A DNA stretch of 60,470 bases, filler included, from Sphacelaria rigidula (taxonomy: Eukaryota): NCBI GenBank assembly GCA_964200075.2. It is 6 parts of 6 records of this genome, joined end to end, with 100 filler letters (N's around TTAATTAATTAA, not from the genome) between each part and the next. Parts side by side here need not be neighbours in the genome. Positions count along the whole stretch, not along the records: positions 50,478 to 60,470 come from CAXNAA020007348.1; 5 more parts are not named here. One strand, 5' to 3'. The notes beneath the pieces are model-generated. The model was not told where the DNA came from and made no database searches. It was given only the letters and a program-made list of their open reading frames with translations. The position numbers and the translations under genes were made by a program. This document shows, piece by piece, positions 7,560 through 60,470 of this stretch. Every line of letters begins with the position of its first letter. Within the stretch, counting starts at the first letter, position 1.

Positions 7560-9936
7560 TATGCAACCGTACGAAAACAGGTGAAAAAATGGTTAAAGAA
7601 AAACTAGAAGGGGATATGGAAAGATTTCGTTAATAGAGACAGAGACTGATGGCGGTATGAAGCAAACGTGGGTAGGAGTAAAAGGGATATTGGATAAACG
7701 GGCAGGGCAGGGAAGACAATGCAATAGCCACGCCGAGAGCACAAAACGGTAAAATGGTTAGTACTTCGAACCGGAAGAGAAAAGTATTAGTAGAGCACTA
7801 CCGATATCTGGGAATACCAGTAACTAAAAAGAGGTTTGACGAGGAATTCGAGGAGAGCAACGCGTGCGCAGAGGCAAATATAGAAGCATCAAAACGGGAT
7901 GATGGTGGTTTAAAAGAGTTGCAGCGAGAGATTACAAGAGAGGAAGTAAAAGGGTGTGTAGCTAAACTCAAAAATAGAAAGGCAGCAGGGGCAGACGAAG
8001 TGGTGAACGCATTCATGAAGTACGGGGGGAAGGAATGATTACCATGATGGTTGTATTGTTTAATTGGATCGGGAGAAGGAGTACACACCGAACAGGTGGA
8101 GAGAAGGAGTAGTAGTGAACCTGTTCAAGAAAAAAGACCAGGGCGACCCGGGGAATTATGGGGGGATAGCGCTACTAGGCACCGTAGGGAAACATTCTGT
8201 AAGATTCTAAATGATAAACGGGGAAAGATGCCGGAAAAAAAATCAGAGGGAGGCAAGCAGGGTTTAGACCAAATCGTATCTGCGTAGACCATGCGTATAC
8301 ATTAGGGATAATTGATCGAAGTGGGAACGTACAGAAGGCCTATGACACACTATTACACACCACGGAAAAATGGGCCCTAAAAAAAGATGTGGGAAGCAGG
8401 ATCAGAGGAAAGATGTGAAGAATGTGAAACATATGACAATATGTGCGATAAGAGCTATGATGCTAGATGGCGAAATATCGACATATGTTGATATCTTACA
8501 AGGAGTTTCACAAGGATGTGCGTTATCCCCCACCTTATTCCAGGTATCTATTAATAGCATGATGAATCAAGGTGGGGATAAATACGGATAAGGTGTCGGG
8601 ATTGTGTTCGCGGATGATTTCGTGGGGATATTAGAAACACCAGAAGGATTGCAGAAATAGAGGAGACTCTAGAATACACGAGGGAATGGAGAGTGACAGC
8701 GAAGGCGAACAAATGCGTGCTAGTTGTATGTAACGAAGAAAACGAGAACCCAGTACAGTTCAAATTGAAGTGGCGAGAATCGGAACTACCGGTCGTAGAC
8801 CAGTATTCATACCTTAGAGTGGAGATATCGAAAAAGGGTTGTTGGGATGCACACGCAGATAAATTAATAGAGGAAAGGGTAAGGCACAGATAGGCAAGAT
8901 GGATGTGATCCTGAGAGATTCGCACGTCGATACTAGGATAAAGACATGAATTCTGATTAATGTAATTCTACCGAAGCTACAATATATAGGTAATGGAAAG
9001 GAAACGCGAAGGTCGTGAAGCAGTTGGAAACAGTACAGATGAGCAGCTGAGAAAATACTTGGATGCTCAAAAACGACGAGCAGTACGGTACTGAGAGCAG
9101 AACTGGAAATGTACCCACTTGAAACAAATAGAGACCCAACAAAATTGAAATGACAACTTAACGCAAGGAACATGCCAGGGAAGAGGTTGCCAGCCATAGT
9201 GAACAGGGCTGTATGGAAGAAACTAACAAAATGGCAGGCTGGAATAAGGTGGAATAACGTAGTCGAGAAAGTATGAAAGCATATAAGAGGAAACCAAGAT
9301 TAGATAATGTTCATGGGTGAATGCGGGGGGTACAAAACAAAAGTAAACGAGATAGAAATAAGGGGGAAACAAGCGCTAAGGGAGACCGTGGACGGGGAAA
9401 AGCACTTGAAGATATACGGGGGGCTGAGAGAAGGGATAGGGATGAAGACATATCTGCACGGCCCAATGACCTACGGCAAAAAGTTGACTGTGTGATTTCG
9501 GGTGGGGGACCTGGACCTTCCAGAAAGGAGAAAGAGGTATACCAGTACTGTAGTCGGGTGGAGGAGAAAGTCGAGTCACAGAACTGCCCCTGCGTCAAAG
9601 CAAATTAGTAAAAGTCATGAAGTGGGAAAGTGGGAATTATAAAATGAGAAATGGGACGTGTTAAAGGGGAAACGTCACAAGTATATGAACGTGGGATGAA
9701 ATCGTTTGGTACGTGAGACAGTGGCGAGGAAACGATTGCTACACTATTAATACGAGATAGGTGCTGGCCACAGACGGCGAAACAGGAAGGGGACACAATT
9801 TTTGTGGTATGTATGGAGAAAACGTAATGAGCGCCCAAATGTTGGGAGTGTCTCTACTAGGAGTAGGAATGGTCCTCCGTCTTGAAAGGGATGCGTGGTC
9901 AGTCGTCAATGAGTAAGGTAAGCAACAACTGAGTAC
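7560..9936 (+). mobile_element. Degenerate 5'-truncated non-LTR retrotransposon (LINE), RT region plus 3' end
   Basis: Frameshifted RT motifs: EITREEVKGCVAKLKNRKAAGADEV, QGVSQGCALSPTLF and FADDF (about 8606). Purine-rich strand. The 3' end ...GGATGCGTGGTC...AAGCAACAACTGAGTAC is shared with short copies elsewhere in the window. Confidence 0.9.
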
Positions 9937-9997: not shown

Positions 9998-10097
9998 NNN
10001 NNNNNNNNNNNNNNNNNNNNNNNNNNNNNNNNNNNNNNNNNTTAATTAATTAANNNNNNNNNNNNNNNNNNNNNNNNNNNNNNNNNNNNNNNNNNNN
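9998..10097. other. Artificial contig linker
   Basis: N44-TTAATTAATTAA-N44, with stops in all six frames. Confidence 0.98.
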
Positions 10098-10384
10098 GAA
10101 GGGATTCGACGAAAATGAACTTATGGCTATGGCATGCATGATCATGAGTACACCCCCCAAAACCAGCTCAAAACTGTCACGAGAAAACGGTCATACAGCG
10201 CCTGATGTTTGGGTTCAGGCTGCATGAAGTGCCTCATATGGGCGACATTGGTGAAAACGAGCCCAAGCGCGGGAACCACCAGCTGCTCGTTGTGCTCGGC
10301 TTTTTCTATCTCGATTGACTTGTAGATTTTGCATCCCCAAACCAGCCACTCTTCAGGGCGGGGCTATCTTAGAAAGTGTCATGT

Positions 10385-12933
10385 TTCCCTGGAAAGAGGA
10401 TCTCAGCAACACGCGTATGGTGAAATGAAACTGTACATTCGGGAACTAGGGGCAATTGCAGGCGCTGGCAATGCGAGAGATCTCATTGCATGTGAGCGTT
10501 CAGGGAAAGGAGGCTCCGGAAAGGTAACACAGGAGGGCGCACTTTGGCTCCCTGGACTACCTCGCCGGCTGCTGAGTACCGGAACGACTCGGCGTGACGG
10601 AGGAAAATTCGTGGACTTCGGCAGGAAGGAGATCTACGTTCGGTTCAAACATGATGAGCCGACGATCCCCCTGGCCTGGAGTAGAGGCTTACTGACCCTG
10701 TCGGCATCACTGCGGGGAAATGGTAAACATGCGGCGTCGGCGCACGCTTCGTTCGCAAACAAGAAGCGCCTCACACTGAAGCAGTGGCACGACACCCTAG
10801 GGCACATCAATTCGGCTGCTTTAACACCTCGATAATCGTGGGTTGATCGATGTCACTGATGCCACGGTGGCGTCCGAGATTGTTTGCAGCGTTTGCATGA
10901 AATGCAAGCCCGAGGCGCTCAGCTACGGCGGCGGCGGCGGCAGGAGTCCCAAAACACCAGGAGAAGTTGTGCACACTGATTTTGAAGGGCTGTTCCACGC
11001 CGATGTCACGGGCGTGAAATACTTCCAGGTTTTCGTGGTCGAGGCCAGTCGAGACAAGCACGTTGTTGCACTCGAGACACGAGATGCTGCCCCTGCGCCA
11101 CGGGAGCCAACATCGACGAAATGGCCCTTGAGAGAATGACCATCAAATGCATCAGCGGAGACGGCGCTGGGAAACTAGGATGGTCAGTCAAATATCAACG
11201 CATGCTGGCCAACCGCGGCATCAAGTGGCGCTGCTCACCGCCAAGGACATCACAAAGTTATGGAATCGTTGAACATGCAATTCAGCGACTGATGAGGAAA
11301 GCACGCAGCCAACTGGTGAAAGCGGGACGCGGAGAGGACTCCTGGTTCTTCGCTGTGACGGACGCGGCATTCGAGACCGCAAGGATGCCACACGAGTACC
11401 TCGGGGGCGAGACCCCATGTGAGAGGCTGACAGGAAAGCCTTATAACTATGATCGGTGTCGTACTTGGGAATCCGAGTGTTTCGTGCACCAGCACACACA
11501 GAAGCGCGACGCCGCTGCAATGTTTTACCCATATGCGATAGCGGGGCATCATGGTGGGGCACGATCAGCACTTTCTCCGTTGGCATTAAAGGTTGATACA
11601 GTAGTCCAAGCTCGTCGAGTCTTCACACGTCACGTTTGAATGAGAGGCCAAGATCCCAGACATCGTAGGGGAGCTGAAGGCTGTCGAATCGAGTGACGAC
11701 AAGGACGAACCATCGGAAGAAGAGAACGCAACACCAATCGACGGCGATGATGAACCGGGTGGACAACCACTACAGGATCCGACATCATCGAAGCGCTCTT
11801 CCGCGGACAGTGGACTGCGCAGGTTCAGTCGACTGGCGCGACGGCATCGAGGGGACAACGCAGAGGAACGCTTTAGAAGTTCTGACGGCATTCGTTCTGA
11901 GGACAGCAATTTCCTTGCCACCCGTCGGCAAGATCAGGACAAAGGCGTATTCTGCATGCTCTGGGGTCGAGTCTTCACTGGACCACAGATGGAAAGTAGC
12001 CACGGAAGAGGAAATCCAGCGGAAGGACGACGAGCCTCCGAGATAAGAGGCCGGTGAACCGCTGGGATCACGGGTGCCGCCGGCGGCGTCTGTAACCTAC
12101 GCGACTCCAAGTGCGGACGAGCGCTCCGAAGGTTCAAAGACGGAGGCACCGCGGACAAGAAATCAGCAACAGATCGGGCAAGAGGATTGCGCCTTCTCGA
12201 GCGGAGATGGCCGTGATCAGGGTCGGATCATCGAACCAACGGAGACGCTGGGCGATAACGAAGGGGCGAAGCTCGAGAAAAAATGCGTGCCGAACGCGGA
12301 CGATTTTACCCTTGGCCAAGAACCAGAGGAGAAGCCTGCGGCAAAGGAAGCGACAAAGGCGGTGGAGGGACCCCCGGAAGGTGCGGGATGCCTGCCACTA
12401 AATGGCACCCTCGCACAAAAGCAGCAAACGTTGAAGTCGCTGTTCTCGACCAAGGATGTCAACACGCAAAATACGGCGGAAGTCGGGTCGAGTCCGGAGG
12501 GTCCAGGTCCAGCAAGTGACTTGATGGCAATCGATGGAAATATTCATTTGTCTCGTCTCTAGCACGTTAGGTGTGATCGTATCAGCTTTCTGGTGTTACT
12601 GCTATACGATCATGGGGGAGTATGCAGATTATGTATCGGACATGGATCTCATACGTAGATTCTCGGACATGTAGTCAACTAGCGTGGTAGCCGCCAGTAC
12701 GGTTCAGTACAAAGTACCAACACGAATGGTCCGGGAACCAGTACTGTAGGCGGTGCTCAGTCGAGCCAGAACGGCTCCGCGGCTCTATTTTGTACGCTCT
12801 GTAGTTGGTGCTTAGGGCTGGGATTTAGAGAGAGAAGGTTCAGATGAAGTTGTACACAAGCGGGTGACATTTGAATAAATAATGAAAAGCACGGTGATGC
12901 AGCGCCCCACTCGCGTACGTCCTCCACCCATCA
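10385..12933 (+). mobile_element. Defective Ty1/Copia LTR retrotransposon (integrase kept, RT/RNase H missing)
   Basis: GAG-pre-integrase WHDTLGH...CSVCMKCK. Integrase core VVHTDFEG, ISGDGAG and SPPRTSQSYGIVEHAIQRL. RT-start-like HRWKVATEEEIQ at about 11984-12019 with no RT body after it. Polypurine tract GGGGGAG at 12614-12620. Confidence 0.85.
12621..12933 (+). repeat. Putative 3' LTR of the Copia element
   Basis: Follows the polypurine tract, contains AATAAA at 12874 and ends in CA. The right boundary is approximate because no 5' LTR is available for comparison. Confidence 0.5.
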
Positions 12934-13649: not shown

Positions 13650-13803
13650 CTTTAGGGGGTTACAGTCCCGAGTGGCCCTAAGGTGTGCAGAGTACGTTTC
13701 TGCCCAAATCGGAGCCGCTGCAGGCGCCGATTCGAGGTCTGCCAATGCACACTTTACCCTGGGCACCCTTGGATCGGGGTCGAGGTTGGGGTTGGGATTA
13801 GGA
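13650..13803 (+). repeat. Interspersed repeat ending in degenerate telomere-like hexamers
   Basis: Shares CAGGCGCC...TCGAGGTCTGCCAATGCACACTTT with about 55167-55200. Ends GGGGTCGAGGTTGGGGTTGGGATTAGG. Confidence 0.65.
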
Positions 13804-14875
13804 CTAGCGCTGTTCCAGAGTTGTGTCAACGATGAATAATTTGGAGGCGCATCGAGACAAACGCACCTCGAGAATAAGCGAAAGGGGCATACTTCCGACG
13901 GTGATGAAAAATTTTACCAAGACAAACGAATACCCCCGTCCTTCCTCCCATCTTGACGAAGGCCTTTCGCGGGATGCCCGGTGTCCTGTTCTTGCGTGCT
14001 TGTAGGGCGTCACCGCTGGGTCCGAGCGTCGTGATGGTGGGGCTGCAGCGGAAAATACGTGGCCAATAGGCAGGGCGCAGGTGTGTATGTGGGACGCTGA
14101 TTCCACAGTCCATCCATGGTGCATTGGAACTAGTGTGTACGGATATGCTTGCTGCCGAATGCGATGAATCCCTAGCAAGGTCAAGTGCTGAATGTTGCAC
14201 AAGTGCTCTGAAGTTGTGCTCCTCCCGAAAGTCTCTAGAAAATGTATGCACCGTAATTGTCCGAACAGAAGCACTAGTTGGAAGAAGCATGGCCCATGAT
14301 GAGTACTGGCCGACGGGGAGTATCATAGCGAATCCGGGACAGCGGGGTTACCTGTGCCGAGGATGCTCCTGCTCTCCTTCCATATTCGTACCAAAAATCG
14401 TGCTTTCATGAGGTATACTCCATACCGGCCTGTACTGTAGTGACGTGCACGGTACTCGAGCAGCTCTCGTTCCCAGTAATCTACGTGTCAAAGCCCCCAG
14501 TTGATCTGGTGGCATTGCTACTTACTTATGCATAAAGTTTGAAGCTGTGGTGCCTACTGGCTCGTCGCTGTCTTCCCCCCCGCCCGCCATGTATGGTCTT
14601 CTCCCCGTCATATATGGTGAGATACCTATGAGGCAGTGTGTAACCGTTGTCCGTCTCTGGAAGTGGCGATACCAGAAAATGAAGCAACACTCATAGTAGC
14701 ATGCCATCCATATGCAAGATAATATGTACACTGCGGGCCGGACATCTTCAAGCAGGATACGGCTTATCGTTCATGCACTCACCGACCACATCACGGGGCT
14801 CCGCGCTTGTTGATTGCGAGCCTGGTCCGGCGGAAACCCGGCGTGCTCTGTCCTGGCTTTGTAGGAATGAGAGTT

Positions 14876-14953
14876 CAATGACCATATGACTACGGCATGC
14901 AAAACCATGAGTACCCCCCCCCCCCCCCCTCCCCGTCATCCCCCCCCCCCCCC
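14876..14953 (+). mobile_element. Short LINE 3'-end fragment with poly(C) tail
   Basis: CAATGACCATATGACTACGGCATGCAAAACCATGAGTAC followed by a C run. Matches the LINE terminus at about 9900-9936. Confidence 0.7.
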
Positions 14954-17882: not shown

Positions 17883-17889
17883 TCCTTGA

Positions 17890-18675
17890 CCCTTACATGG
17901 CGAGAATAGGTCATCTGTTGAATCGGCATCAATGTCACTTGAAATAAGAATTATGCATGATCCAGATGGACTACCCTTCAACCGCGAGAATAGGTCACCA
18001 GCTGAATCGGCATCAGTATTCACTTAAAAAAAGCATGCATGATGCAGATGGACTACCTGCACCGCGATCCTTTGACCGCGCGGGTAGGTCACCTGCTGAA
18101 TCGGCATCACTTGAAAAAGTATGCGTGATCCAGGTGGACTCCCGCATCGCGGTCCAAGGGTTAACCCTTAGACCGCGAGATTAGTCTTTCTGGATCATGC
18201 ATACTTTTTTTTCACTTGAAGTTGATGCCGATTCAACAGAAGACTAACCGCGCGGTCTAAGGGTAACCCTTAGACCGCGGTGTGGGTAGTCCCTCCGGAT
18301 CATGCATACTTTTTTCAAGTGATGCCGATTCAGCAGGTGACCTACCCTCGCGGTCTCAGGGTTGGCCCTTAGAGGGCAAGAGTAGGTCACAATTTGAATC
18401 GGCATCAATTCCACTTGAAAACGTATGCGTGATCCAGATGGACTATCCTCCTCGCGGTCTGAGGGTCAACCCTTTTGGGACCGTCTACCTCACAACAATC
18501 GTGTGTTAGCGGCAGGTAGCAATGGTTTCGTGGGATTGAGAGTAGGGCGTTGATTGCGGTCCAAGGCAAGAGTATAGGTCACCTGTTGAATCGGCATTGA
18601 TTCCAATTGAAAAAGTAAGCGGATCCAGATGAACTACCTTCCTTGCGGTCTAAGGGTTAATCCTTTTGGGACCTT
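17890..18675. mobile_element. Array of ~100-bp piggyBac-like MITEs
   Basis: Units bounded by CCCTTAGACCGCG...CGCGGTCTAAGGG (e.g. 18165-18263, 18267-18361, 18366-18465), joined by TTAA/TAA/TTGG/TCAA. Confidence 0.75.
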
Positions 18676-20093: not shown

Positions 20094-20193
20094 NNNNNNN
20101 NNNNNNNNNNNNNNNNNNNNNNNNNNNNNNNNNNNNNTTAATTAATTAANNNNNNNNNNNNNNNNNNNNNNNNNNNNNNNNNNNNNNNNNNNN
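20094..20193. other. Artificial contig linker
   Basis: N44-TTAATTAATTAA-N44. Confidence 0.98.
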
Positions 20194-24047: not shown

Positions 24048-27000
24048 GTGGTGTTCAACAAGATATTTCATGCCGCCTACCAGTGGAAATTCATTGAGGC
24101 ACATGGCCGGCGCAATTCTGCGGCAAGTGCAAGTAGTGCGCGCCGCAAACAGCAACAGCAACAGCAGCCGTCTTCGCGAGCGTCGTCCACTCGCGCGTGT
24201 TACAACTGCGGCGACACCGGACATCTGATCAAGGACTGCCCCAAGCCTCGCTTTAAGGCAATGCATAAATAAATGCGCGAGATTCTCCAGGGTCTCGAAG
24301 CGGTCGTCACGGTGGACGGGGCCATGCCAACCAGGGACGCGGGCGCGGCGGCCGCGGTAGAAAACAATCGGCGGCGGATGGTGGTCCCTCCGCTGCTGTT
24401 TCTTCTACTACGCCATCAGGTGGTGACTCTGGATCTTATGGTTCGTCCGTGTCGGGGCGGACAGTGCACGTGGGAAATGCAAATACTTCGGTGGGGAGTG
24501 CTGGAGCGAATAGTTCGTAACCCCTCGGCCAGGCAGGATGATCCGTGTCTGGTGCATTTCCAACTGCTGCGACGGCTGTTACAGCGCCGTCTGCATATTC
24601 GGCGACTTGGTCTTGTGGGACCGACGATTCGAAGCTATCGATGTCAAGTGCTGAAGCGCAGCCCTGGCGTCTGGTGACTATTGATACCAACCAGGGTCCT
24701 CCGGCAGGCGTGGTACCTGTCGATCGCAAGGCTGAATGTTTACGCGCAGATCTTTCCTTGCCTGGTTCTGTAGCTTCAATCATGGCCCGCGTTATTCTGA
24801 ATTCTGGGTCCGCGCTCACGTCGATCGGTGTGGGGTTGCGTGAGCAAATGTCTTCGCAGTTTGGCGGCGCTCAGCTTCAGATTCCGTTCGAAAACGGACC
24901 GCAAACGGCACAGACCGCCACGGGTGCTCTCGTGACGGTTACACATAAAACTGTGCCGATTACTACTGTTAGCGTGCGTACGCCGTGGGGGGCTGTGGAG
25001 TTGCAGCCCATTACTTTCGCTGTCATGCCCGGTAGGGACAACGTGGTTCTTTTCGGGATGGCGACGAGGAAGGAGCTCGGGATTGATTTGTATCCGCTGG
25101 CGTTGGTTACGTTACGCCCGCATGCTGTGCCGGTGCAAACCGGCGTGGAAAATCCCAGCCATCTTACTGCAAGGCGTGTGATGGTATCCATACGGCCATT
25201 CCAGAGCGCCAATGAGGAAGAGGCTCCTGCGGATGAAGCGGTGGGGCGCTTGGTCAATAAGGGGCCCTACATGTTCGTGGACCCAGCGGAGGAGAGTGGT
25301 GCAAGAGAACGTGCGCTTGAGGATAGCGTGCAGCAGGCCGAGCAGAAGGGCCTGAGCGCCGATGGCGCACATCGTCTACGTGATATTTTGGCTCGTCGCG
25401 TAGATACATTTTGCCGTGCGCTGCGTGGTGATCCGCCAGCGCGCGTAGAGCCCATGAGGGTGCAGCTTAAGCCCCAGGCAAACGCGGTGAAGGCCAAGCC
25501 CAGACCTCGCGATCCGGTGAAGGTCGGGTGGCTTGCCTCATGCATCGCAGCTTTGGTGGCGTTTGGTTTAATGGTGGGGAACATCCAGGCTGTGCGGTCG
25601 AGTGCGGCGACGGCGGTGCCAAAGAGGGACACATTCCGTTTGGTCAGCGACTATCAGGCGGTGAACGCGCAAGTGGAACAGTCGACGGGGGTGATGCCAA
25701 GCAAAGAGGACATGCGGGAGTTGCTGGGAGCCCAATGCTTCGGCAAGTTGGACCTGCTACAGGGGTATTGGCAGATGGCTCTGGCGGCGGAAGCTCAGGG
25801 GATCTTCACGATCGCCACGCCTGACGGTTTGTTTACCCCAGGTGAAGCCCGCTTGGTGAAGGTTTCTACCGTGCCTGTTCGTTCTGCTGCCGTGTACAGA
25901 CCGTGTGATGCCGATGATTCGCTGCCCTCGTTACATGTCATTCGTACCGCGCAGCGCAAAACAGTCGGCGATGGTGTTCATTTTTTCCGTACGGCTTTCG
26001 GTCAAGCTGCTTCGGCTGACGATGGTTTGTTTCGCGTGCGTGTTAGCAGTAGTGATGTTTTGTAGATTCCGTCGGATGATGAAGATCTACAAACTCGCTT
26101 GATGGTGTGCGCTCACATGCGGTCGGCTGGACATCGTGGTGTGGCGCCGACTCTGTTTCATTCGAAAGAATACTGTGTGTGGCCTCACATGGATTCCCAC
26201 GTTCGCGAGTTCGTTCGCCAGTGTTTGCATTGTGTAGACACTCGTGGTGATGCGATTGTACCTCGTCCGTATGGCGATACTGTGCATGGTACTGCGCCAG
26301 GTGAAGTTGTTTACTTTGGTTTTCTGTACGTCGGAAGTAGCGGACCTGAAGGTGCTAACGGTTTGCCTGAGGAGGATGGTTCTCGGTACGTTTTGGTTAT
26401 AATGGATGGAGCCGACCGAGGCTTGCACCGCCGAGGTTACGGCTAAGCACTTGCTCCATTGGTGCAAGACTTTGAGGGTGCCGCGTGTGTAGGTTAGTGA
26501 TACCGCCACGCACTTCAAGAAGCGAGTGCTCGCGCAGCTGAGCGACGCGCTCAAGGTACAACACCAATTTGCTGTTGCGTACATTCCATCAATCAATCAA
26601 CATTCCTTGATCGAATGATGCTCGTGGACGCATGGTGCAAAAGGCTATTCGTGCGTTGCGGTCCATTTTGTCGGAACAGAAACGGCCGTTGTCTGAATGG
26701 GCTGATGTTTCGCTTGCCGCCCAGTGGGCGTTGAATTCTTCTTTCCTTGAACGCTACCGTAACACTCCGTATTGTGTGATGTTTGGGCGTGCGCCGCGTA
26801 CAGCATTTTCCGCGCTGGTTTCTGTCACTGGCGGCGAGTGGAACGTCGATGTCATGGATGCTGATTCATTGCGTGACAAGATTTGAGGCGTGGTTGACGA
26901 GCAAGTGCGGTTTTGTAGCGAAGTGCAAGCTGCTGTCGCGGTGTCTCGCGAAACCAAACGCAAGCTTGCTCAGGACCAGGCTGTGCTGCCGAACTTTTAA

Positions 27001-30188: not shown

Positions 30189-30288
30189 NNNNNNNNNNNN
30201 NNNNNNNNNNNNNNNNNNNNNNNNNNNNNNNNTTAATTAATTAANNNNNNNNNNNNNNNNNNNNNNNNNNNNNNNNNNNNNNNNNNNN
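30189..30288. other. Artificial contig linker
   Basis: N44-TTAATTAATTAA-N44. Confidence 0.98.
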
Positions 30289-35615: not shown

Positions 35616-35683
35616 CGGTGCTCCGTCCCAAAAGAGTGCGTGGTTGATGGTCAAACGACTAAGGCAAGCAACAAATGAGTACG

Positions 35684-35718
<35 letters not shown>
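35616..35718 (+). mobile_element. 5'-truncated LINE end with a C35 tail
   Basis: CGGTGCTCCGTC...GACTAAGGCAAGCAACAAATGAGTACG followed by C35684-35718. Homologous to 9871-9936. Confidence 0.85.
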
Positions 35719-35719
<1 letters not shown>

Positions 35720-37794
35720 CCGCCCCCGCCCTCGCCGCCCAGCTCCCCGGAGCCAGCAACGCGCGNNNNNNNNNNCCCCCCCCCCCGCCCCCCACGCCCA
35801 CAATAGGGGTGGTCCAAGCAAACAGCGAAAAGAAAAACAACAAGCGCCACCCCCCCCCCCCCCCCCCTCCCCCCTCCCCGAGGGACACAGCTGTGGCCAT
35901 CATGGTCATGTGATGAACGCATTGGAGATGACGCACAACGGGAAGACACGGTGAAGGACAGTAGTGAAGAAAGCAAAGGGATGGAACAGACACGAACAAC
36001 AGACTAAAGAAAACAAACACGATAATTTATGTGTGTATAGTAGTCGAAGTATATACTTGATATATATATATAGAGAGAGAAAAATGGTCGGTTGTCCTCT
36101 GCAACATGACTTCAGGTGGAGAAGTTCTTGCGCAACATCACACGCATGCATACTCGCTCGAGAAATCAAAGAGCCGTGGGGACAAATTACGGCTACTCCA
36201 TGTATGTCACGACTATTTTTTGCTCGTTTCATTCGTCCCGGCGATTCTATCGCTCCAAAGACAGATCCACGGCATTCTTCGAAAGCTTTGTATGCGCAAC
36301 CATAGTTCTTGATCCTATATAACCTTTTCTTGTGGTGGCCGCCTGCTGTGTGCTCGATGATGATGTGGAGTGGTTGGGTTTTCCCCAGGTCAAGACGCAG
36401 AAAATTCATGGAGATGATTATATTTCTCCAGTGTACGATACTACGGTGTAACATCATTCAAGATACATATTTTTTTGCGGTGGTCAGGGCAATAGTGGTG
36501 CCCATCCTCGAGGCCGTTCTCGTTTGCGTCTCTCCTCTAGGCGACGGTTTCCAAGCTGCAGCTTTGCAGCACATGGCTGGGTCTGTTTTGACGTGGACCG
36601 TCGTTTCAAGTCGCGTTATTCTGCCACACAAAACGTCGTCGAAGTGCCCTGAAAATTCTGCAAATGTATGCTCTCGGCCAACAAATTGTATAAGGTATAC
36701 AGTTCCACTACTATTATGGGGTACAAAGATGGACAAAATTGTGTGGGGCAGGCGCGGAGGGGGTGAGTAAGACGCGATGCATCACCACCCCTTCCTCTCC
36801 AAATTGCCTGATTTTTTTGTTTAGCAAGCACTCCTGTACGAAAACCGATTCAGTCTCATACAGGGTTGACCCTTCGACCGCGTGCTTGGGTCATCTGCAG
36901 AATCAGTACCAACTTTACTTGGAAAAAGATTGCATCGCCAGATGACCTGCCCTCGCGGTAAGAGGGAGCGGGACCCTTTTTTCCTGTACTGTTGTACCAC
37001 GACCGCACCCATCATCATCTGTTGGATACAGATACATAATCACCGAAACGAGGTGGGCTTGTCGCAGTTCGGGGGCACTACATTCTTCATGGTTGACATA
37101 TTCTTGGAATAATGGTAACCCTAAGTTCAATATACCGAGAACCCTCGGGCAAAGAGGGTGCAAAGGACGCCCTAGGCAGAGGATACGCTCGCAGACTCGA
37201 TATCAGCGCCTGTACCGATCCGGACAAGAGCGCGTTCTGCGCACGGTCGAGGAAGCACATAGGACTATACTGTGACCCCCACTGCAGATCCGAATCGCTG
37301 CCTTGGAACTCAATTCAAGTAATGGCAACCATGAATACAATGGCTTCGAAGTGGCAATAACTTTACGAAAATACCGAGACACGAAATGAATGCGGAGCAC
37401 GACCCACAGGCAGGCAGGTGCTACCGAAGAAATTTGTCGAAACTTCTCATAATTCGAAATTCAGCAGGTAAGTTTCGAAACTAGCGAAGAAGGCGAGACA
37501 AGTGCCCCTGTAGAACAGTCTCCGCGGTTGGAACACACGAACATATTTTTTTCTGTAGGACTTCTATTATTATTAGATAAATACCTTGAGATATTGAAAG
37601 GCCTGACACTTTCCCAAGTGTTCACGGCGTGCGGTGTGTGCAGCAGCCAGCACGCGTTTTGCTCTAATCGTCGGGCTTGAGTCTGCTAACGTACACTGCG
37701 CCCAGAACACCATAATTAGGCACACTTCCTTTCACGAGATTTTTTGGTACACCTTGGGTTAGGGTTTGTAGGGTCATGGGTTTGAAAAACCCAA

Positions 37795-40283: not shown

Positions 40284-40383
40284 NNNNNNNNNNNNNNNNN
40301 NNNNNNNNNNNNNNNNNNNNNNNNNNNTTAATTAATTAANNNNNNNNNNNNNNNNNNNNNNNNNNNNNNNNNNNNNNNNNNNN
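40284..40383. other. Artificial contig linker
   Basis: N44-TTAATTAATTAA-N44. Confidence 0.98.
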
Positions 40384-44010: not shown

Positions 44011-47000
44011 ATGGTAAAGTTGCTTTCCTCCGTGTACGTGTGCAAGTGTGTATATGCGTGTCTGTATTTATGTGTGCTGGCGCTTTGCCCTTTTTTCAGC
44101 ACACAGTATGATGCCTTGTTTTGCGGGAGCTGGTCGGGTGGAGTAGAGGGTTGATGCATAGTTTGCCATGTGGACACACGGTCATGAAGCCGTCCCGTGG
44201 ATAGTCCACAATTCTTACAATACCACACGAGAGCAGAAATATGGCACTGGCGAGGCCAGTCTTCTGCGTTGGCTTGGGTATCTAGACTACAGTTCTCACA
44301 TTTATATCGTCAATTTGCACGCTTGTCCTGTTGAAATCGCAGGGTGTTCGTACGAAGACCGTCAAAAAATCGGCGCGAGCCATCATCGAGAAGTACTACT
44401 CTCGCCTCACGATGGACTTCCACACCAACAAGCGTGTGTGCGACGAGGTAGCCATCATCCCCTCCAAGCGTATGCGCAACAAGATTGCTGGGTTCGTGAC
44501 GCACTTGATGAAGCGAATCCAGAGGGGCCCTGTGCGAGGAATTTCGCTCAAGCTGCAGGAGGAGGAGCGGGAGAGGCGCATGGACTTCGTGCCGGAGGTA
44601 GGGGTGTCCCTATTGTCGAGTCATTTACTCGGGTTTCGGCATTTCCTCAGATTGAGTGATTCGTGATGGTTCGGCAGCACCTCTTGGTCCCACGTGCTGT
44701 TACTAACGATGGGTAGCTCCCGGTCACTTTGCACCGTTGGTCAGCGCGGTAGCCCGGGCCGGGACACTGACTGTCAATTAACCTGTAGTTTCGAAGTCAG
44801 GACATCCGGTCACCCAATCTACGAGATGTTTTCACGTCAACATAAACCGCATGATGTTTAACACACTCCAGCCGTTACCCTGGTCACCAATTGATAGTTC
44901 ACCGTCACTGAGGTAGTGAGCGCAGACAAATAAGCTCGACTGTGGGAAAGCACCTCAATATTGGGATTGACGTTTGAAGATGGTCAAGGTGAGGTGCACG
45001 CGAAATGAAAACGGTATCGTCTCCGTAGTTGCCGAATACGCTGATTTCCCTTGTACTCCGGGCTTGAGGCTCATCTTGGACGAGAAGAATGGCGAGAAGT
45101 GGATCAAGTATCCAACGGTAGTATTTGAATTGATCGCTGCGGCGACCTAATGTGGCGAGATGACCCATCAACATGCTGCTTCTGGACGCTCGCTTTCGCT
45201 CTTGGCTCTTAATTTCAAGATCGAGAGAACATGGCCTGACCCGCTGAATCTTACAGGTGGAGGTCGTGTGTGACCTCAACCCCCACAAAAAGCACGGGAT
45301 CGGCTCTCCGACAAGAAGTGCTCATGACCATCCAGCCAAAACTATTACATCCTAAAATTAGCCAAATCCCCGAACGGCGAGCATCGGCTCGGAACAGTTT
45401 CACAGGCCGACAGTCTCGGCAAATCCGCGGGTTTCCAGTGGGCGGGCGGGGGGCGGAGGTATCTGTCCGCAAAGCAGCCGAGAAGCTCAACAAGGCAACC
45501 ATGTGTGTTCGAAAGTTTCTTGCGGAAGATTATAAGCCACGAATGAGGCCGAGAGGCGCGGAATGACCATTCCGACCAATCACACCCGCCGAAGTGACCA
45601 CGTAGTTACCCTACCAGTGGCCTACGGGTGTACTACTTCGCTATCTTTTGGTATTTCTCATTTTGGTCACAGCGATTCAACCATAGATATGAACGCAGAA
45701 GAGATTTTGTATCTCCTCGGCGTTTCTGCCACCTGTCTGACACATCATGTGCTGCCCGTATAGGTGAACATTGTGTGCAGGGTTGGTTGTGTGTGGAACA
45801 CTAGGCACAAGCATCAGCAGCATCCAGTAAATTACAAGGTCGTGTTCTGCACGGTACGGGTATGTTTTGAACGGTACTAGATTCCTGATGAAACTTACCG
45901 AACTGTCGGGTACCGGTGAAGAAGTCTTGAAAGTCACAGATCTTGTCGGGTACGGTACGGGATGCTCACAGAGAACCGGTACCGGCAATCGGGTAACTTT
46001 TTAGGGTATACCCGCCCCTCACTTTCCGGTGATGCGGGTGGTGTAATGTTTTTGCACAGGGCTTACAAAACTGTCGGGTGAGGGCTAGGCTTGAAAAACT
46101 CACGGAAACCTTCGGGTAGGGTATGAAAGTTGCATAGAAAACCGTACCCGCAACCGGGTATATTATCGAGAGCATACCGTGCCCCCCGGTAACGGATTGG
46201 GAGGTTAACAAAACTCGCAGAACTATCGAGTGCGAGTATCGAAATCTTCCAGAGTTCACAGAGCCGTCGGGTATGGTAAACATCGGGTAAAATACCCCGG
46301 GTGAGCGAGAAACCGTACCCTACAAAATACGACCTTGGTATTATTATCACCCCTGTGGTGGGACCTACGCCACTACAGCAGGGGTGAAATACAGTAAGCA
46401 GTTCAGGGGCTTGATCCACAAGACGAAGCGAACAGTTACAGTAGTACATATGCACGTGACCGTCGACATCTGTCGGCTTAACGTACACTTGCAGACGATT
46501 GATGAAAGAGCAATCACGGCTGCTCGTTTTCTGGAGGCCCGTCGGCACGCGAAGCCACCGACGGCCTTGGTGTGGTGAACATGACACAACCACAATCAAC
46601 CTCAATGACGTGCGTCTTGTTACTTGATCCTGTGGTGATGCAGATGAACCGTCGCCGCTCGAGCCACCACTCGAGTCTGGGGGTAATACATCCTGACAGT
46701 CTGCAGGGCTGCTCATGTTTCGTGTTTCCACTTCGCGACACCTTGTACCCCGTCAGATTATAAATAATGAAACTTTTCAACGCTGAAAGATTGGTGTGCA
46801 GTTATGAATGGAAAAGTTGGGGAGGTTAATGGATAAGAGGTACATGTTTGAATTTAACCCATGTCCGTACCTCCCGAAGTATATGATCCTGTGGTCACAC
46901 CTGCAATCGGGCATATCTAGAACGGTATACCTCAACCCCGGGTAGGGGTAGGGGTATGGGAGCCTTACAGAGCTCCACAACTAGTCGGGTACGGTATGGG

Positions 47001-50377: not shown

Positions 50378-50477
50378 NNNNNNNNNNNNNNNNNNNNNNN
50401 NNNNNNNNNNNNNNNNNNNNNTTAATTAATTAANNNNNNNNNNNNNNNNNNNNNNNNNNNNNNNNNNNNNNNNNNNN
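50378..50477. other. Artificial contig linker
   Basis: N44-TTAATTAATTAA-N44. Confidence 0.98.
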
Positions 50478-50585
50478 AGCACGCCGGGTTCACGCCGGAC
50501 CAGGCTGATGGGGGGGGGGGGGGGATAAGACATTGGCGCCTGATATAATGCCACATAGATTTTGCTGTGGGAATCCTCCACACAT

Positions 50586-51562: not shown

Positions 51563-54500
51563 GTGGGTCTGTTGCTCGCTCTGAAGATGTTGCTCCTGCC
51601 GCTACTCCTGGGCGTGTGTCTGGACGCCACCACCCTTCAAGTATTTGGGTGCACGGGGGAGGCCAGGGCTCGCTTCATGGCGGAACATCTCGTCGGCTCT
51701 TTGCTTCTCCACTGGGTGCGTTCATGGGTGTGTTTGTGTGTGTTGGTGTGTGTTTTGGTGCAACAAGGGGAGGTGGTCTGTTTCTTTGGCTCCTGAAATC
51801 CGGAACCCCCTGTTGAGCCCAAGTCTTTTTTGTCCGCTGTGCGTTTCATCGTATGGGCGCTCTTCCTCTTCAGTATTCAGCTTTCAATTTTCCCTCCTGA
51901 TGGTAACGACTGTTGTTTGTCGTTTCTGCATGTTGTTTAGATATCACCCCCTTTCCCCCCCCCCCCCCCCCCCCCCTCACCTACTTTTACACCTTTTTCT
52001 TCATTCCCCACCCCACTAATATCTTCTATCGNNNNNNNNNNTTTTGCTTTTTTTTTTCCCTCCTTTTTGTTAGCTCTTTTGTTTTTTGTTTCTTCATTTT
52101 TTTTTAATTTCACCCCCTTTCCCCCCCCCCCCCCTCTTCAGATACATTTTAGCATATTACCGCATCCTGGGCAACGATTAATTACTTTGGCAAGGAGCGT
52201 ACGGCGTGTAGTATCAAATATATTGTCTAATCCAATAGGGAATAGATTCGATACTGTATGCAGTGCACTTTTTGCGAATGTTGTCTGGTGTTCAGGGTGT
52301 GAATGTCACGAAAGAGCCATCCAAGGGTCGGACGAATTGATGATTCGTCTGGAAAATACTTGATTTTAGTGTGATCGATTTGTACTGTACGAATCAATCC
52401 TTGGGCTTTGTTCACAGAGTTGCACTCGAGGTACGCGCACCCCAGGCACGTGGAATGGCGCAAAAATTACGTGGAGGCCTTAATGACCAGAGGTCGATTT
52501 TTTTCTCTCTTTCGAGCAATCAGGCCTGAAAAATCGTGAATGTAGTGATTCGAACCGGCGATGATTCGTTCGAACCGTGGAACCATCCTACCAACGGTTG
52601 GTGGTGGAAGTGTTGACACGTCAGACAGCTCATGAACTACCGACTTATTACTTATTACTTCCTGTGTCCCATAAGTAAAGGTACGTACATTTGTACGGGC
52701 CCTTAACGATGTCCGATCGTTTTTTTTTTTAAATGAACTCTACGGTGTTTTTTGGGTCAAAATAATGTGTTTAAAATTTGCAGCTTGTGCTTGAACCATG
52801 CCGCCGAACGGCTGCAAAAATAGTAGTCGGTCCAAAAATGGTCGTTTTTTGCCCCTTTCCGAGGGGAAAAAAATGTCGAATACATATTTTATATTTTTTT
52901 AATTGCGTGGGACCTCCTGGCAGCAAGCCCCAGTGAAGGCGGAGGCGATTAAAAAAATATTAGAAAAAACATTCGATACTTTTTTTCCCCTCGGAAAGGG
53001 GCAAAAAAAACGGCCATTTTTGGACCGGCTACTTTTTTCGCAGCCGTCCGGCGGCATGGTTCAAGCACGAGCTACAAATTTTAAACACATTATTTTGACC
53101 CAAAAAACACCGGAGAGTTCATTGAAAAAAAAAAAAACGATTGGACATCGTTAAGGGCCCGTACAAATGTAGGTACCTTTACCTATTGGACAGAGGAAGC
53201 GTTAGTGTACTGATCTAGATCATGAGCTAGCTCGTTTGGGCCCTTTTGTCCGCAGTTGCTTCCTATAGCGCTGGACGCCGGATATCAGGGTAGCGCAAAG
53301 GTAGCGCTTCGATTTCTCAGACCCCACTGTCACGTATTTCGTGTTCTCGGGCAACGGATATAAGAGTCCTCATCGATCGTTTTTTTTAGGTAGCTCATGA
53401 GCTGTCGGACGTGTGAAAATTTTGAACAGGACAAGAGGGGTCCACTGGTATGATCCACAACAAAACTCACGTGTACGTGTATTTTCGCCAGGGCAAAGCT
53501 TCGTCGAGCTACCGAAATGCCATACCAACACAAAACGCTCTTGGCGCTGTTTTCCTGCCTCGAGTAGCCGAGGGAGAGATAGGTTGATCATATGAGACCA
53601 CAGACCCGTCCCGAGTCAATGGAAGAGTTGAAAGTCTGACGCAAAAAAGAGGAAAAAAAATGATGTGTCGTAGTGGTCGTGCTCGGGCAACGATATGGGC
53701 AAACCTCCCCCGCCCCCTACCCCGCGTATGAAGAGTATGTATATCATTGGGGATACTCGTGCCCGAGACATATGTAGGTCGCAAGGGTCGGGCAAATCGA
53801 TGATTCGTCTGGAAATTACTTGGTTTTAGTGTAATTGATTTGAATCGTTCGAATCAATCCCTAGGCTTTGTTTTCAGCGTTGCAACCCAGGTGCACACAG
53901 CCCAGAAACGTAGAATGGCGCAAAAGTTGCGTGAATATTCCTTGGACCAGCGTTCAACTTTTTTCTCCCTTTGGGGCAATCAGGCCGAAGAAATCGTGGA
54001 GTTGGTGATTCGTAGTCATGATGATTCGTCCTAACCGTGGTAACTTGTCATCTTATACCTTGAAGCTCCATTCAAGTATTGAAAAAAGTACCCTGCGCAC
54101 ACGGCAATGCTGCGTGGACAGCGTTGACAAAATTCCGTGCCCGATTTTCGTTTCCCTTTGCTAGGGTCATGTACCTTACTTACTCCGGATCCCTCCTTCC
54201 CCCCCGCCCCCGCTTCTCTGATGCCGTACCTAACCGCACCATCCTCTCAGGTACTCGGCATCACGTTCATGCTGTTCGTAACCGTGTCTGTATTGCAGCT
54301 GCGCGAGGTAGTGCACCCGGATCTGCTGTCGTTGATCATCCGGCCGCAAGAACCGCACCCGGGCCTTCTCGGATCACTGCTGCAGGAATCCGGCCGGACA
54401 CACGCCCGCCGTATGACCATGAGTCTGGTGCGTCTGTTGGGTCGGAGGGGGGCGAGATGGGAAGGGGGGGGAATGTGGGGCTGCCCACTTGGCGCGCGCT

Positions 54501-57500
54501 CGCGCGAGGCTGATGTGCAGTATGCATTGATGTGTATTCGATCCTCGTGCGTGCAAATTTCAACATCACCGTTTGGATGTGTACTTGCCAAAATCTCACA
54601 CCGAGCAATATTTCACATACCACAGAGATCGACAACTGCTTGCCCCGCCTCCTGTCTGTCGTCTCCCTTGGATAATAATCGAGGGTACACCATTTTCAGT
54701 GTTGACCTATGCCATGTTCCATTTTCACGATCCGTTTTCCAAAAGACAAGCGGGTGCAATGCCACAGAATCAATATCCTGTCACTGCTATTAAAAGTCAC
54801 ACAGCCCTGTGTAAAGCTACAATTGGACTGTGTCTTATAAGGACTTCTTGTCTGCGTGTGTCCCGTTCACGCTTCTCTGCTCGCGTCTACTTCCTTTCCA
54901 CTAGGCGATATACCTGGCTCTCGTGGCCATGTTTGTTTGGGCGCCGACAAAGCTTGTTGGCCGCATGTTCCCGGGGGTCATGCCCGTCCAGGTAAATGAT
55001 ACTGTACTCTTACGTCGTTTCTTCGCAGCACCTGCGGTGGTCAACAATCTGGCACCCCGAGTTGCTGCAGAGTTCACCAAAAATGGTCGGAAACAGTGAT
55101 TGTTACTTGCTTGTAGAGGGACTGAGAGTCCCGAAGTGCTCCTAGGTCGCCCAGATCCTTTTTTGTCAGGCGCCAACTCGAGGTCTGCCAATGCACACTT
55201 TGCCTAGGACTCCCCACGTGACCGAGGGTTCTCTTGTGCCTTTGTCAGGTTAGGGTTAGGGTTAGGGTTGGCGGCACCTTATTCACAATCCCGAATATAT
55301 TATCCGACCATTTGGTGAACAACCCTCAGTTGTTACAAAAACTCTCGGTGGTGGACTCAAGTCTTTCCTATCGTAGCACGCTCCGTCACTTATCCCAGGA
55401 GAATGAGTGTGTGCATGTTCCAGGCTACATACATTTTCGTACGTTGGTTGGTTGGTTGGTTGGTTGGTTGGAAAAAAATATTTTTGAGGCGTTTTTTATT
55501 CCGAGGGTGCTTCTGGCTCTCGTTCACGCTTCCCTTTTATTAGTCTTTCGTCTTCCGCTGTCGATTGTGCATTGCGCTGCTTTTCCCTCCTCTGGTATAG
55601 TCCCTCCTCCCCATGAACTGTGCTCCGTCTCGAAAAGGATGCGTGGTCATTGGTCAAAAGACTACGGCAAGCAACAAATGAGTACGCCCCCCCCCCCCCC
55701 CCCCCCACACACTCCCCCGCTCCTCGGTTTTTCGGGGGGGCGGGGGGGGNNNNNNNNNNCCGCAAAAAAGGAGGTGGGTTATTAGTCAAAAACGAACGGG
55801 AAGCAACAAAAGAGGCCGCCCCCCCCCCCCCCCCCCCATGAACTTACCCTGCTATCGGTTATTTCGAGGGGCATGGGTGGGTGGGGGTACTCATCTGTGG
55901 CTTACCTTGGTCATATGACCATTGACCACGTATCCTTTTCGAGATGACGGGAGGGGGGACTCATTTTGTGCCTCACACAGGTTAAGTAGCTTCATTCCGC
56001 CATGTTCAAGTTTTAATGCCTTTTCTTGTTATATTCGTTGTCGTCGTCATCGCTGACTGCACGCATTGCTATTCTTCGCTCATGCCTCCGCTCATGGTTT
56101 TCTCTGAAAGTTTTTGTTCCTCCTCTTCCGCTTTTCTGCATCCGTTTTTTTTCGCTCTTTTGTTTGTGTTGTGTTATGGGGTCAAAAATTGTGCTACTAC
56201 TGCAAACGGTTACATCCACAACTTTAACAACAACCAATAACAGCTGGAACTACGTTACGGCATACCGCAGCTGCAGATCCCAGTGGAGCTGGTGATCCTG
56301 CATTTGGCCATGCTGGCGTTTCTGGAGAAGTATCAGGTACTAAAGAGGTTTGGAAAGTTATATTTTTTCACGATCTATTTGAGGATCAGGACGTGAAAGC
56401 TTCAGGATGGATGCTGTCAAAAACCTCAGGATGGAAGCTAAATACTTCAGGACGGAAGCTGAGAACTCCAGCACGGAAGCTGACGTTACGTGGCTTGACG
56501 TTACTTCATTGTCCGTCCTACTGCCCACCCTCTCGCCCTCCCTGGATTGGGCATACTCAACCGTTTTTTTTTTTCGCGCCTCGTTTTTCCCTCATGCTTC
56601 CTTTACAACGAATTTGTGTACACTGTGTCTCTTTTTACTACTCGAAAAAAACCGAACAAAATCGCTTCTACTCTTTTTTTTTTTTCTTGTTGCGGTTGCG
56701 TATTTGTTTCCTCTCTTCCCGGGACACAAATTTCTAATCTAAACCTCTTTTGTTGGTGCTAAACCTCTTTTGTTGGTGCCGCCTTGTTTCCCGTCCCCCC
56801 CTGCCCTTTTTTAATATGTTTAATCAATCAACAATTGAAACGCAAAAAATAAAAAAAGAATCGCATCGGCGAGATGCAGCATGCTTGGCTTGTGGCGGCG
56901 TGCGGCGAGCTGGGACTCACGCGCTACGTTCTGCCGCAGCCGATCATCGCGAGAAAGCCGCCGATTGGAGCCCCCCCGCGCGACGATGGAGCTCGCGCGA
57001 AGTGGCCGTCTCGGATGGCGTCGGCCGTGAAGGCGTGGTGGGATGGCGGCGAGCAGGGGAAAGACGATGAGGTGCGACACTAGGAGATGGAGGCGGTCAG
57101 ACATGCTGGCGGTGCAGAATTATCTACTCTGATGAGGGAGAGATCTGAAAAATGTACATATTATTTTTCATTTCATCCTTGTTTATGTTTTTTTTTCCTT
57201 TCCATTTCTTGCTGATAGCGATACTTGCGGGCTCGGCTCCTCCCTCTCCTTTTTTTTTATTCAGAGCGCGCGCGTACGTGTGTATGTAAGTGTGTTCTGT
57301 CCCCCTTACCGACATTCGGCGTTTCCTTCTTTATACCTGCGTTGAACACACACATGTGACGAATGACATGGCAGGAAGGGATAGTGGTTGGACCTCCGCT
57401 GCGCCGCCCCCCGCCCGGATGGGATGATCCGGGCGGCGTGGCGGAGGGTAGATGGGCGTGGGGTATGGAGCCCCCGGGAGAAGTCCAGCTCAACCTGGCG

Positions 57501-59333: not shown

Positions 59334-59456
59334 GTGTGCAGTCGGAAGAAGGAGTAGTGGGGGAGGGGCCTGGGGGGGGGGGTGTACTCGCGATTTGACT
59401 GATTCAGTTGTTCATACTGTCGTTTGGCAAGTCCACGGTCGAAGAGTTGAAGATAT

Positions 59457-59723: not shown

Positions 59724-60470
59724 GAAGATATCACGGCGCATAACACGCCACGTATAATTAAGGTTATTCTGTGACTTGTACAGTGTGACAGTAACAGGGA
59801 ATTCTGGAAATTGGGAACGATATTCTTCCGGCGGTGTTTAGAATTGTGGGAAATGATACCCCCTTCGAAGGCACCTTCCCCTTCGAAGGCACCTCCGAGG
59901 CAACTGGGGGCACCTCGAAGGCGCCTTCGTGCGTCCCCATTTTCCGCAATTCTGGACACCATCGAAAGATCCACGTTCCCATTTTTCAGAGTCCCGTCAC
60001 GTGTTGATCAAGTTGACGCCTGATCCTTGAATTTCGAGCTGCGTTTCGTGGGTGTTGATGTTATAGCAACGAAAATGAACCTGAATGTCATTGTCTCGGC
60101 TGGTCGGGCTGTTCAAATATTTTGAAGTTTGGTAGTTGTGTACGAGTTCCGTGCGTCTGATCATTCCTCCTCTTGCCATTTCGTCTTTTCGCCGGTGGTA
60201 CTTTTTGTCTTGCGTGCTGCAAATCCACCTTTAATTTTCAGCGGGCGCTTACCGCGGCAGAAGTGGGTCTGGTGCAGGGGAAAATAGACGAGGTGAGGGG
60301 TTGGAGAGGAAGGATGTGCATGCCCTAGCAGAGGGAATAGCCGGTGGGGTTAGTTTTTGCGAGACTGCTGCTACAATGGTTGTAACTTTGAGGATGGGAG
60401 GGGGGGGGGGGGGGGGGGTACTCTTTTTTTTCTTTCCTTTGTTTTTTACCCATTAACCCCGAGAAGGGGA

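Follow-up and report, generated by a model that had tools for sequence, protein, structure and literature searches.

A LINE family with poly(C) tails and C-starting target duplications in Sphacelaria rigidula

Repeat copies in the window and the 55609 locus

The window analyzed here is a stretch of 60,470 nucleotides from the Sphacelaria rigidula assembly GCA_964200075.2 (27,214 contigs, 244 Mb). It consists of six contigs of about 10 kb each, the first being G000:C7343, which are separated by spacers of the form N44-TTAATTAATTAA-N44, and repeat copies on different contigs are therefore not neighbors in the genome. TTAGGG repeats in the sequence, a sequencing-run label, and the element's nearest named relatives all fit a brown-algal host. 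The window holds an old, 5′-truncated copy of a LINE, short copies of the LINE's 3′ end, and copies of a noncoding partner family (Table 1). The old copy covers the linker, the reverse transcriptase (RT), and the C-terminal CCHC region, all interrupted by many stop codons and frameshifts; as the initial annotation had stated, it ends at 9936 without a C tail, and no target site duplication (TSD) was seen around it.

Table 1. Copies of the LINE and its partner family in the window, with the parts of the 55609 locus
Feature	Position	Strand	Basis
Old LINE copy, 5′-truncated	7572..9936	+	tblastn to P0001, E 7e-149; 75% over 2,435 nt to intact relative L192
Partner-family end (10101-10152) plus C6, at contig start	10101..10158	+	Profile match; overlooked by the initial annotation
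Partner-family copy of ~304 nt (14611-14914) plus C16 tail	14611..14929	+	66 bits with partner profile versus 26 with LINE profile; 77% over 312 nt
LINE end of 66 nt (35618-35683) plus C35; 5′ flank C-rich	35618..35718	+	Profile, 60 bits; 90%
Left TSD copy, 11 bp, begins with C4	55609..55619	+	Sequence; junction to element contiguous in 4/4 runs
Minimal LINE copy, 67 nt	55620..55686	+	Sequence, predicted fold, profile match
C20 tail (the C19 at 55819-55837 is the same tail from the opposite side)	55687..55706	+	
Assembly artifact: garbled read-through past the C run from either side, plus 10 N	55707..55818	.	Shuffles, zero depth
Right TSD copy	55834..55844	+	Sequence
Second LINE end, older, ~60 nt; C tail eroded, 5′ flank C-rich	55875..55946	-	Profile, 55 bits; 88%
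Probable LINE end, garbled, plus C19 at contig end	60400..60461	-	blastn, 78-80% including the C run; no profile match

The initial annotation had listed recurrences of the LINE's 3′ end at 14876, 35616, 55620, and 55883 and, with less assurance, at 59372 and 60400. Three of these stand, at 35618, 55620, and 55887 on the minus strand (where the LINE end proper is 55946-55887), and the C-rich 5′ flanks described for the 35616 and 55883 copies were seen at both. The site at 60400 is probably a LINE end as well; its sequence gives the impression of a garbled read where the contig stops, and it gave no profile match at 9 bits. The sequence at 14876 is not a fragment of the RT-coding LINE and instead forms the end of the nonautonomous partner copy at 14611-14914. 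At 59372, only GAGTACA precedes the C run and no profile match was obtained, leaving that site unsupported.

The most informative copy lies on contig C7348. Its 67 nt comprise the final 20 codons of the open reading frame (ORF), the stop codon TGA at 55679-55681, and a 3′ untranslated region of 5 nt; a closing helix and two hairpins are predicted for it, and blastn places it at 83% identity to the end of the long RT-coding copy. The copy was reported to be bracketed by CCCCATGAACT, and this sequence is indeed present at 55609-55619 and again at 55834-55844. A caveat attached to that report, namely, that the duplication spans an N gap, proved to be justified for part of the locus: the CCCCATGAACT duplication is real, whereas the 112 bp around the gap are an assembly artifact. 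Positions 55707 to 55749 repeat the right flank (55838-55890) in garbled form, and positions 55760 to 55818 do so for the element end, with 0 of 500 shuffles scoring as well in either case, and sequencing depth is zero at 55696-55759 in all four runs. The garbled sequence and the zero depth together mean that the insertion consists of 67 nt plus about C19-20 within an 11-bp duplication and not of 236 bp. The finding that 14 of 19 mismatches in 55760-55818 repeat the earlier base, a phasing signature, comes without a control and is suggestive only.

The left junction was recovered as one contig in each of the four runs, reaching from 55279 to 55647-55649. Neither a contig spanning the C run nor an empty site was seen in these four DNA-type runs, in which contigs show presence only. 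Because this is a short-read assembly, lengths of C runs above about 15 are unreliable throughout. Another 10-N gap adjoins the 35618 copy; at 35766 it resembles the same artifact, which we do not claim there, as 161 of 500 and 1 of 500 shuffles scored as well in what is a weak test.

C tails and target sites across the genome

The family is abundant. A 19-mer ending just before the tail has at least 4,388 exact matches in the genome (its reversed control has 0), and we estimate the number of LINE family ends at roughly ten thousand. The observation that these ends run into poly(C), up to C35 in the window, holds genome-wide: CCCCC begins within 1 to 4 nt of the end at 1,611 of 2,206 forward-strand ends, and five non-C bases follow at 18 of the same 2,206 (reverse-strand rows were left out of these counts because one site was counted several times). 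At 85 ends taken from the first-listed contigs, the first base past the end is C in 78 and the fifth is C in 76. Conserved sequence beyond the C tract, which would make the tract internal, had been named as an outcome that would speak against poly(C) tails; sequences past the run are unrelated between copies, and since copies diverge there, the run is terminal. Tails of 20 delimited copies contain 197 C in 209 nt (with 8 T, 3 A, and 1 G), and no poly(A) lies behind them. Their length ranges from 5 to 24 in the 20 copies with a called duplication.

Duplications starting with C, the other part of the initial proposal, were found in 17 of the 70 usable copies under a strict exact-match rule, compared with 2 of 829 mismatched pairs (15 of the 85 copies had been dropped at contig ends or gaps), and in 20 of 126 versus 1 of 751 under a relaxed rule applied to a larger set. 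Since both rules need or favor a duplication that begins with C, C-rich targets are supported independently by a different count: a C run of at least 4 occurs in the 22 nt 5′ of the element in 50 of the 70 copies, compared with 96 of 1,398 random stretches. Runs of A, G, or T precede the element in 3 to 4 of 70 copies each and are not enriched. No duplication could be called in 53 of 70 copies (strict) or 106 of 126 (relaxed), which we tentatively put down to age and to slippage in C runs. The duplications vary in length and have the geometry known from L1, with the C run at the left end of the duplication and the tail merging into the right copy. We conclude that the family is a LINE with C tails and C-starting target duplications.

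Comparison of the tail with the C run of the target in 20 copies bears on the source of the C residues. In 13 copies the tail exceeds the target run, in 2 the two match in length, and in 5 the tail falls short; the medians are 8 for the tail and 5.5 for the target run, with no correlation between the two lengths (rho, -0.11). Targets of three or four C receive tails of 5 to 14, and the 55609 target, with only four C, carries a tail of about 20. Because the tail exceeds the target run in 13 of the 20, the element side supplies C, and three C in the target suffice; the five tails shorter than the target run could derive from the target only. New copies also land in old tails: a family copy on the same strand stands right behind the tail in 12 of 81 cases and one on the opposite strand in 2 of 81, compared with 5 of 800 random stretches.

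The initial annotation further held that the family would explain many poly(C)/poly(G) tracts and contig breaks, which is overstated. Across the window and 40 unselected contigs (459,584 bases in all), 62 C runs have a length of at least 10, and 8 of these are tails of recognizable ends, as against 0 of 47 A runs; a few further C runs are, by eye, garbled tails or left-hand targets. A C or G run of at least 8 is found at 20 of 80 contig ends versus 70 of 2,000 random 210-nt stretches, and an element end is found at 8 of the 80. The family thus contributes to poly(C) tracts and explains a minority of them. The suggestion that it seeds G-quadruplex-forming DNA is borne out as far as the pattern goes and only so far, G-quadruplex-type sequence being found behind 24 of 85 ends and in 4 of 800 random stretches.

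Coding capacity, relatives, and the 3′ fold

Comparison with relatives shows that the LINE has a single ORF encoding an APE endonuclease, an RT, and a C-terminal CCHC motif, with the stop codon 5 nt before the tail. The classification of RT and endonuclease that the initial annotation had called for places the element among APE-type LINEs. RVT_1 was matched by Pfam in an own-genome copy (L035, E 9e-15), and the window copy matches the RT region of P0001, a protein of 1,360 amino acids that is 72% identical to an own-genome piece and has a CCHC motif near its end. Exo_endo_phos lies N-terminal to RVT_1 in the same ORF in the intact relatives P0001, P0004, and P0146. Own copies L144 and L033 hold broken pieces matching the endonuclease part, although Pfam gave no endonuclease match for the L033 piece alone, and no intact ORF was seen among the long own-genome copies that were fetched. 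Intact ORFs of 1,253 and 1,426 codons are present in the C-tailed metagenome elements L192 and L194, respectively. The copies themselves have a fixed 3′ end, variable 5′ truncation, and duplications of variable length, as APE-type LINEs do.

The nearest named relatives are from Ectocarpus. The relatives' ORFs and the 67-mer in the window encode one and the same terminal peptide, and the proteins of two clusters that include Ectocarpus members share it at their C termini. An RT tree of 34 rows (midpoint rooted, built without named clade references) groups the own copy, L192, L194, the further C-tailed metagenome element L196, P0001, and both Ectocarpus clusters in one clade with support of 100/99. 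From these sequence comparisons, the family very probably belongs to the Ectocarpus lineage labeled RTE-X, a label that rests in Dinatale et al. 2025 (PMC12477816) on best blastp hits and is taken here by description only. In the supplementary table of that paper (MOESM3), RTEX-1_Ec32 is entered as "single EN-RT ORF; (C)n 3′" and RTEX-2_Ec32 as "(C)n termini/TSD," and the TSDs of all these RTEX entries are given as "C-rich." The table also describes a nonautonomous element, RTEX-N1, of ~605 bp that has 60 bp of its 3′ end in common with the LINE. The single EN-RT ORF, (C)n end, C-rich TSD, and partner of ~600 bp are all features of the family in S. rigidula, the comparison being made by description and protein clusters. 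RTE-X elements elsewhere have been described with a separate ORF1, in some members with an esterase (PMC3905857).

The partner family is about 570 nt long and noncoding, shares its last ~50 to 60 nt with the LINE, and accounts for 425 exact 26-mer matches at its ends. Its copies carry C tails and C-rich flanks and occur in tandem arrangement, as is also described for RTEX-N1_Ec32 and RTEX-N2_Ec32 in the same table. Set beside those entries by description, the partner is distinguished by a repeat of its first ~46 nt just before the 3′ domain and by copy lengths that cluster near 92 to 101 and 293 to 305 nt (30 copies).

In more distant relatives, (TC)n, (T)n, (TTTA)n, or (TACA)n closes the element a few bases past the stop codon, so poly(C) is one value of a family-specific tail. 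The (TC)n tail occurs in L205 to L207, of which L205 and L207 also have (TC)n near the 5′ side of the contig. Common to most full-ended loci is a short motif about 30 to 37 nt before the stop codon, found by a strict pattern in 9 of 15 full-ended loci and by eye in variant form in 3; it is absent from the remaining 3 of the 15 (L200, L201, and L223). The 24 nt before the motif are predicted to form a hairpin ending within one base of it in 8 of 9 cases, for which single tests are mostly not significant. For the hairpin after the motif, 95% of cells are paired in an alignment of eight rows, with changes on both sides at three pairs, a covariation score that 0 of 500 shuffles reach and slid controls that pair in 28 to 53% of cells. 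These eight rows were hand-cut around the expected hairpin, with L205 and L207, which MAFFT had misaligned, left out. MAFFT also misaligned the first hairpin across families, and that result was not counted. RNAalifold applied to nine ungapped ends found the inner hairpin alone, the closing helix never covaries, and single 67-mers fold no better than shuffles (z, -1.07 to +0.76 for four true ends). Covariation modeling thus points to a conserved 3′ hairpin common to relatives with different tails. By analogy, such a fold fits the "stringent" 3′ recognition described for LINE-partner pairs (PMC3747384).

Short copies, priming, and the origin of the tail

Half of the sampled copies are very short: 62 of 125, in a sample that was not selected for length, measure 64 to 70 nt, and since the profile search behind this set required 40 bits, still shorter copies were removed from it. 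A 14-mer just inside the step in copy length occurs 4,513 times genome-wide and one just outside it 1,147 times, while the two match exactly in 32 and 23, respectively, of 70 long copies; from these counts and rates, about two-thirds of the copies that reach the step stop there. An unselected 460-kb sample contained 11 short and 9 longer copies by eye. The 5′ edge of the short copies is the first base of the predicted helix that closes one base before the tail. Most simply, the ~67-nt copies would represent the part of the RNA protected in a particle or an RT stop at the fold.

The reading that we favor from the sequence data, and consider probable, is that reverse transcription is primed by a nicked G run paired to a C run transcribed as part of the element RNA. 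ORF2p would grip the folded last ~67 nt of the RNA, and the endonuclease would nick the G-rich strand at a run of at least three G, either inside the run or where it ends. The freed 3′ end of the G run would then pair with the C run that directly follows the fold, itself a transcript of the donor's tail, and would prime reverse transcription, with slippage leaving about 5 to 16 C; a second nick some 5 to 15 nt past the run would produce the duplication. Because every insertion leaves a C run, each would be a new target.

It is unlikely, in our estimate, that the tail is instead made at insertion, with RT beginning at the fold's terminal bases where a G run has been nicked, C added by slippage or without a template, and the endonuclease alone providing specificity. 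This would suit the match between tail and flanking repeat in the relatives with (TC)n on both sides and the variation in tail length, and the Drosophila I factor, to go by the title of the paper on it, makes 3′ tandem repeats during retrotransposition. On the other hand, slippage on three paired bases would need to be highly efficient, targets of three or four C receive tails of 5 to 14, and tail length shows no correlation with the target run.

The sharp 5′ edge of the short copies at the closing helix, the 5 nt from stop codon to tail, and the lack of poly(A) behind the C tails of the delimited copies would all be accommodated if C were added after transcription, which we nevertheless regard as improbable. 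We judge no differently the more specific form in which the last ~67 nt are cut out and C-tailed after transcription, this small RNA templating about half of the insertions; that the RNA is cut at the fold and receives its C from a host nucleotidyltransferase, with the released ~67-nt RNA retroposed as the short copies, is more doubtful still. The candidate enzyme would presumably be the CCA-adding nucleotidyltransferase or a relative. However, an Rfam search of seven loci returned no ribozyme or tRNA-like match (four weak, unrelated matches had E values of 0.19 to 0.96), no T-arm was found, and A is not enriched in the tails as CCA repeats would predict. The partner has the same helix as the LINE, yet 0 of 30 of its copies start there, and relatives with the same hairpin end in other repeats. 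If C addition were true, it would give a retrotransposon whose priming relies on a homopolymer other than poly(A), attached by an enzyme of the host or the element, and a clade in which one 3′ RNA fold persists through exchanges of tail and target among (C)n, (TC)n, (T)n, (TTTA)n, and (TACA)n.

The least likely possibility, to which we give very little credence, is that the 64- to 70-nt copies are an independent, very short nonautonomous family whose C targeting is only apparent, the C runs having expanded later by replication slippage: the distance to the intact relative is smaller for short copies (4.7%) than for long copies (8.2%), a comparison biased by exact-match selection, and the sample has more C runs (62) than A runs (47) of at least 10. 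Against this, 72 short and 67 long copies have no diagnostic base between them, differing in two frequency shifts only, and later slippage cannot yield C-starting duplications with a 3-C run on the left and a 14-C run on the right.

The family has counterparts among known systems. Mammalian L1 likewise has a mononucleotide tail, a duplication that starts with the run, and an APE endonuclease with RT (PDB match, E 7e-21); its tail comes from poly(A) polymerase and is used on a T-rich nick with relaxed recognition, whereas here a conserved folded end lies inside the ORF. We know of no source for poly(C) at the end of this family. In RTE-type LINEs the tail repeat matches the start of the duplication, and pairing between the tail and the nicked strand has been proposed (PMC6007223), so the tail-target pairing put forward in the initial annotation is a standing model and its novelty was overstated. 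Green-algal RTEX elements end in (CA)n, (CAA)n, (CCAT)n, and others (Table 3 of PMC3747384) and, like RTE-clade elements and the present family, combine a tail repeat that matches the TSD start with a stringently recognized 3′ stem-loop common to LINE and partner; the family in S. rigidula differs in that the unit is a single C and the overlap with the target is 3 to more than 10 bases rather than 1 or 2. Penelope-like Chlamys elements are also reported to insert into (C)n repeats (PMC8557442), so that (C)n targeting by retroelements is not new, although these carry a GIY-YIG endonuclease and belong to an unrelated class.

Nor is a C-tailed LINE as such the novelty it had been taken for, given the tabulated RTEX-1 and RTEX-2 entries. 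For Ectocarpus, both the C tail and the C-rich target have been documented before, solely through lines of a supplementary table: keyword passages of the main text of PMC12477816 gave nothing on C-rich targets, the tail, or quadruplexes, and its Figure 1C, which displays terminal motifs, may show the C tail. The 64- to 70-nt peak, the position of the stop codon, and the 3′ fold are not mentioned for Ectocarpus in these parts of the paper. In 25 of the 44 rows for RTEX-1 in its table S10, the copies are at least 132 bp long and form a selected set, so these rows are no test of a short-copy peak there. The long copies in S. rigidula are old (70 to 85% pairwise identity, no intact ORF seen), whereas Ectocarpus has intact copies. 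A literature search found no paper dealing with how the C tail arises, with the short-copy peak, or with the hairpin common to relatives, a weak negative given that most subscription journals and the Repbase reports fell outside its scope. What is added here is the supply of C by the element side, the stop codon 5 nt before the tail, the 64- to 70-nt copies, and the covarying hairpin shared among relatives.

Close relatives with a common 3′ hairpin and different tails and targets provide a naturally occurring test of whether tail and target pair, and an RT that primes from G/C runs would be of interest beside those of L1 and R2. For the genome itself, the ends of this family, half of them shorter than 70 nt, are easily missed in repeat annotation, and the C/G runs that they add break short-read assemblies and create false duplications such as the one at 55707-55818.

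Relatives of the LINE with other tails

Among the metagenome relatives of the C-tailed, RTE-X-type LINE, the open reading frame of loci L205-L207, L208, L210, L211, L202, L195, L197, and L204 stops a few bases before a tail of (TC)n, (T)n, (TACA)n, or (TTTA)n, and these relatives with non-C tails contain the 3' RNA hairpin motif found in the LINE. At the protein level, a similar "VVNG" peptide forms the end of several unnamed proteins. An Ectocarpus gene model (protein representative P0016) encodes LTR-type domains fused to the C-terminal end of the LINE, an arrangement that probably reflects a nested insertion.

Composition and other features of the window

The six contigs of about 10 kb in the window are apparently sorted by size, and adjoining contigs are therefore unrelated. 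Besides the LINE, the contigs contain a ribosomal protein exon and several repeat structures (see the table). The short repeated sequence preceding the TTAGGG-type repeats (positions 55167-55204) matches positions 13721-13758, and the same combination of the two is also present in loci L067 and L112. Degraded reading frames at 24542-26450 (+) and 10986-11639 (+) resemble, by eye, a Gypsy-type pol as well as an integrase region; Pfam searches returned no matches to these frames.

Further features of the window, by position
Feature	Position	Strand	Details
Ribosomal protein S17e exon	44286-44666	+	Pfam E value, 6e-50
Inverted repeat	52658-53199		540 nt, near-perfect (87%)
Array of ~90-nt repeats	17889-18665		both orientations
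TTAGGG-type repeats	55240-55270		five repeats, after a short repeated sequence
Spacer blocks	9998-10097, 20094-20193, 30189-30288, 40284-40383, 50378-50477		each N44 + TTAATTAATTAA + N44, between the six contigs

Internal repeat of the partner family

The non-autonomous partner family, which has its last nucleotides in common with the LINE, begins with about 46 nt that recur directly before its own 3' domain (L177, L187, and L188; window positions 14819-14865). Copy sizes in this family cluster at approximately 95, 300, and 570 nt. At window positions 50478-50524 (minus strand), a C15 run at the start of a contig is followed by four bases and then by the partner-family start motif; this run is probably a left-hand target.

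C/G runs at gaps and in other repeats

Further 10-N gaps lie between C runs at 51880-52134 and 35719-35867, each with near-duplicate sequence on either side, and are probably the same read-through artefact as that at 55707-55818, where the sequence around a C run and gap is garbled. In two further repeats (L266-L305, at 28 places; L019, L125, and L136), CTACGATAG adjoins a run of C or of G, a combination apparently placed at the repeat ends. The C run of one of these repeats served as the LINE insertion site in three independent loci. The two repeats with CTACGATAG account for further poly-C/G tracts.
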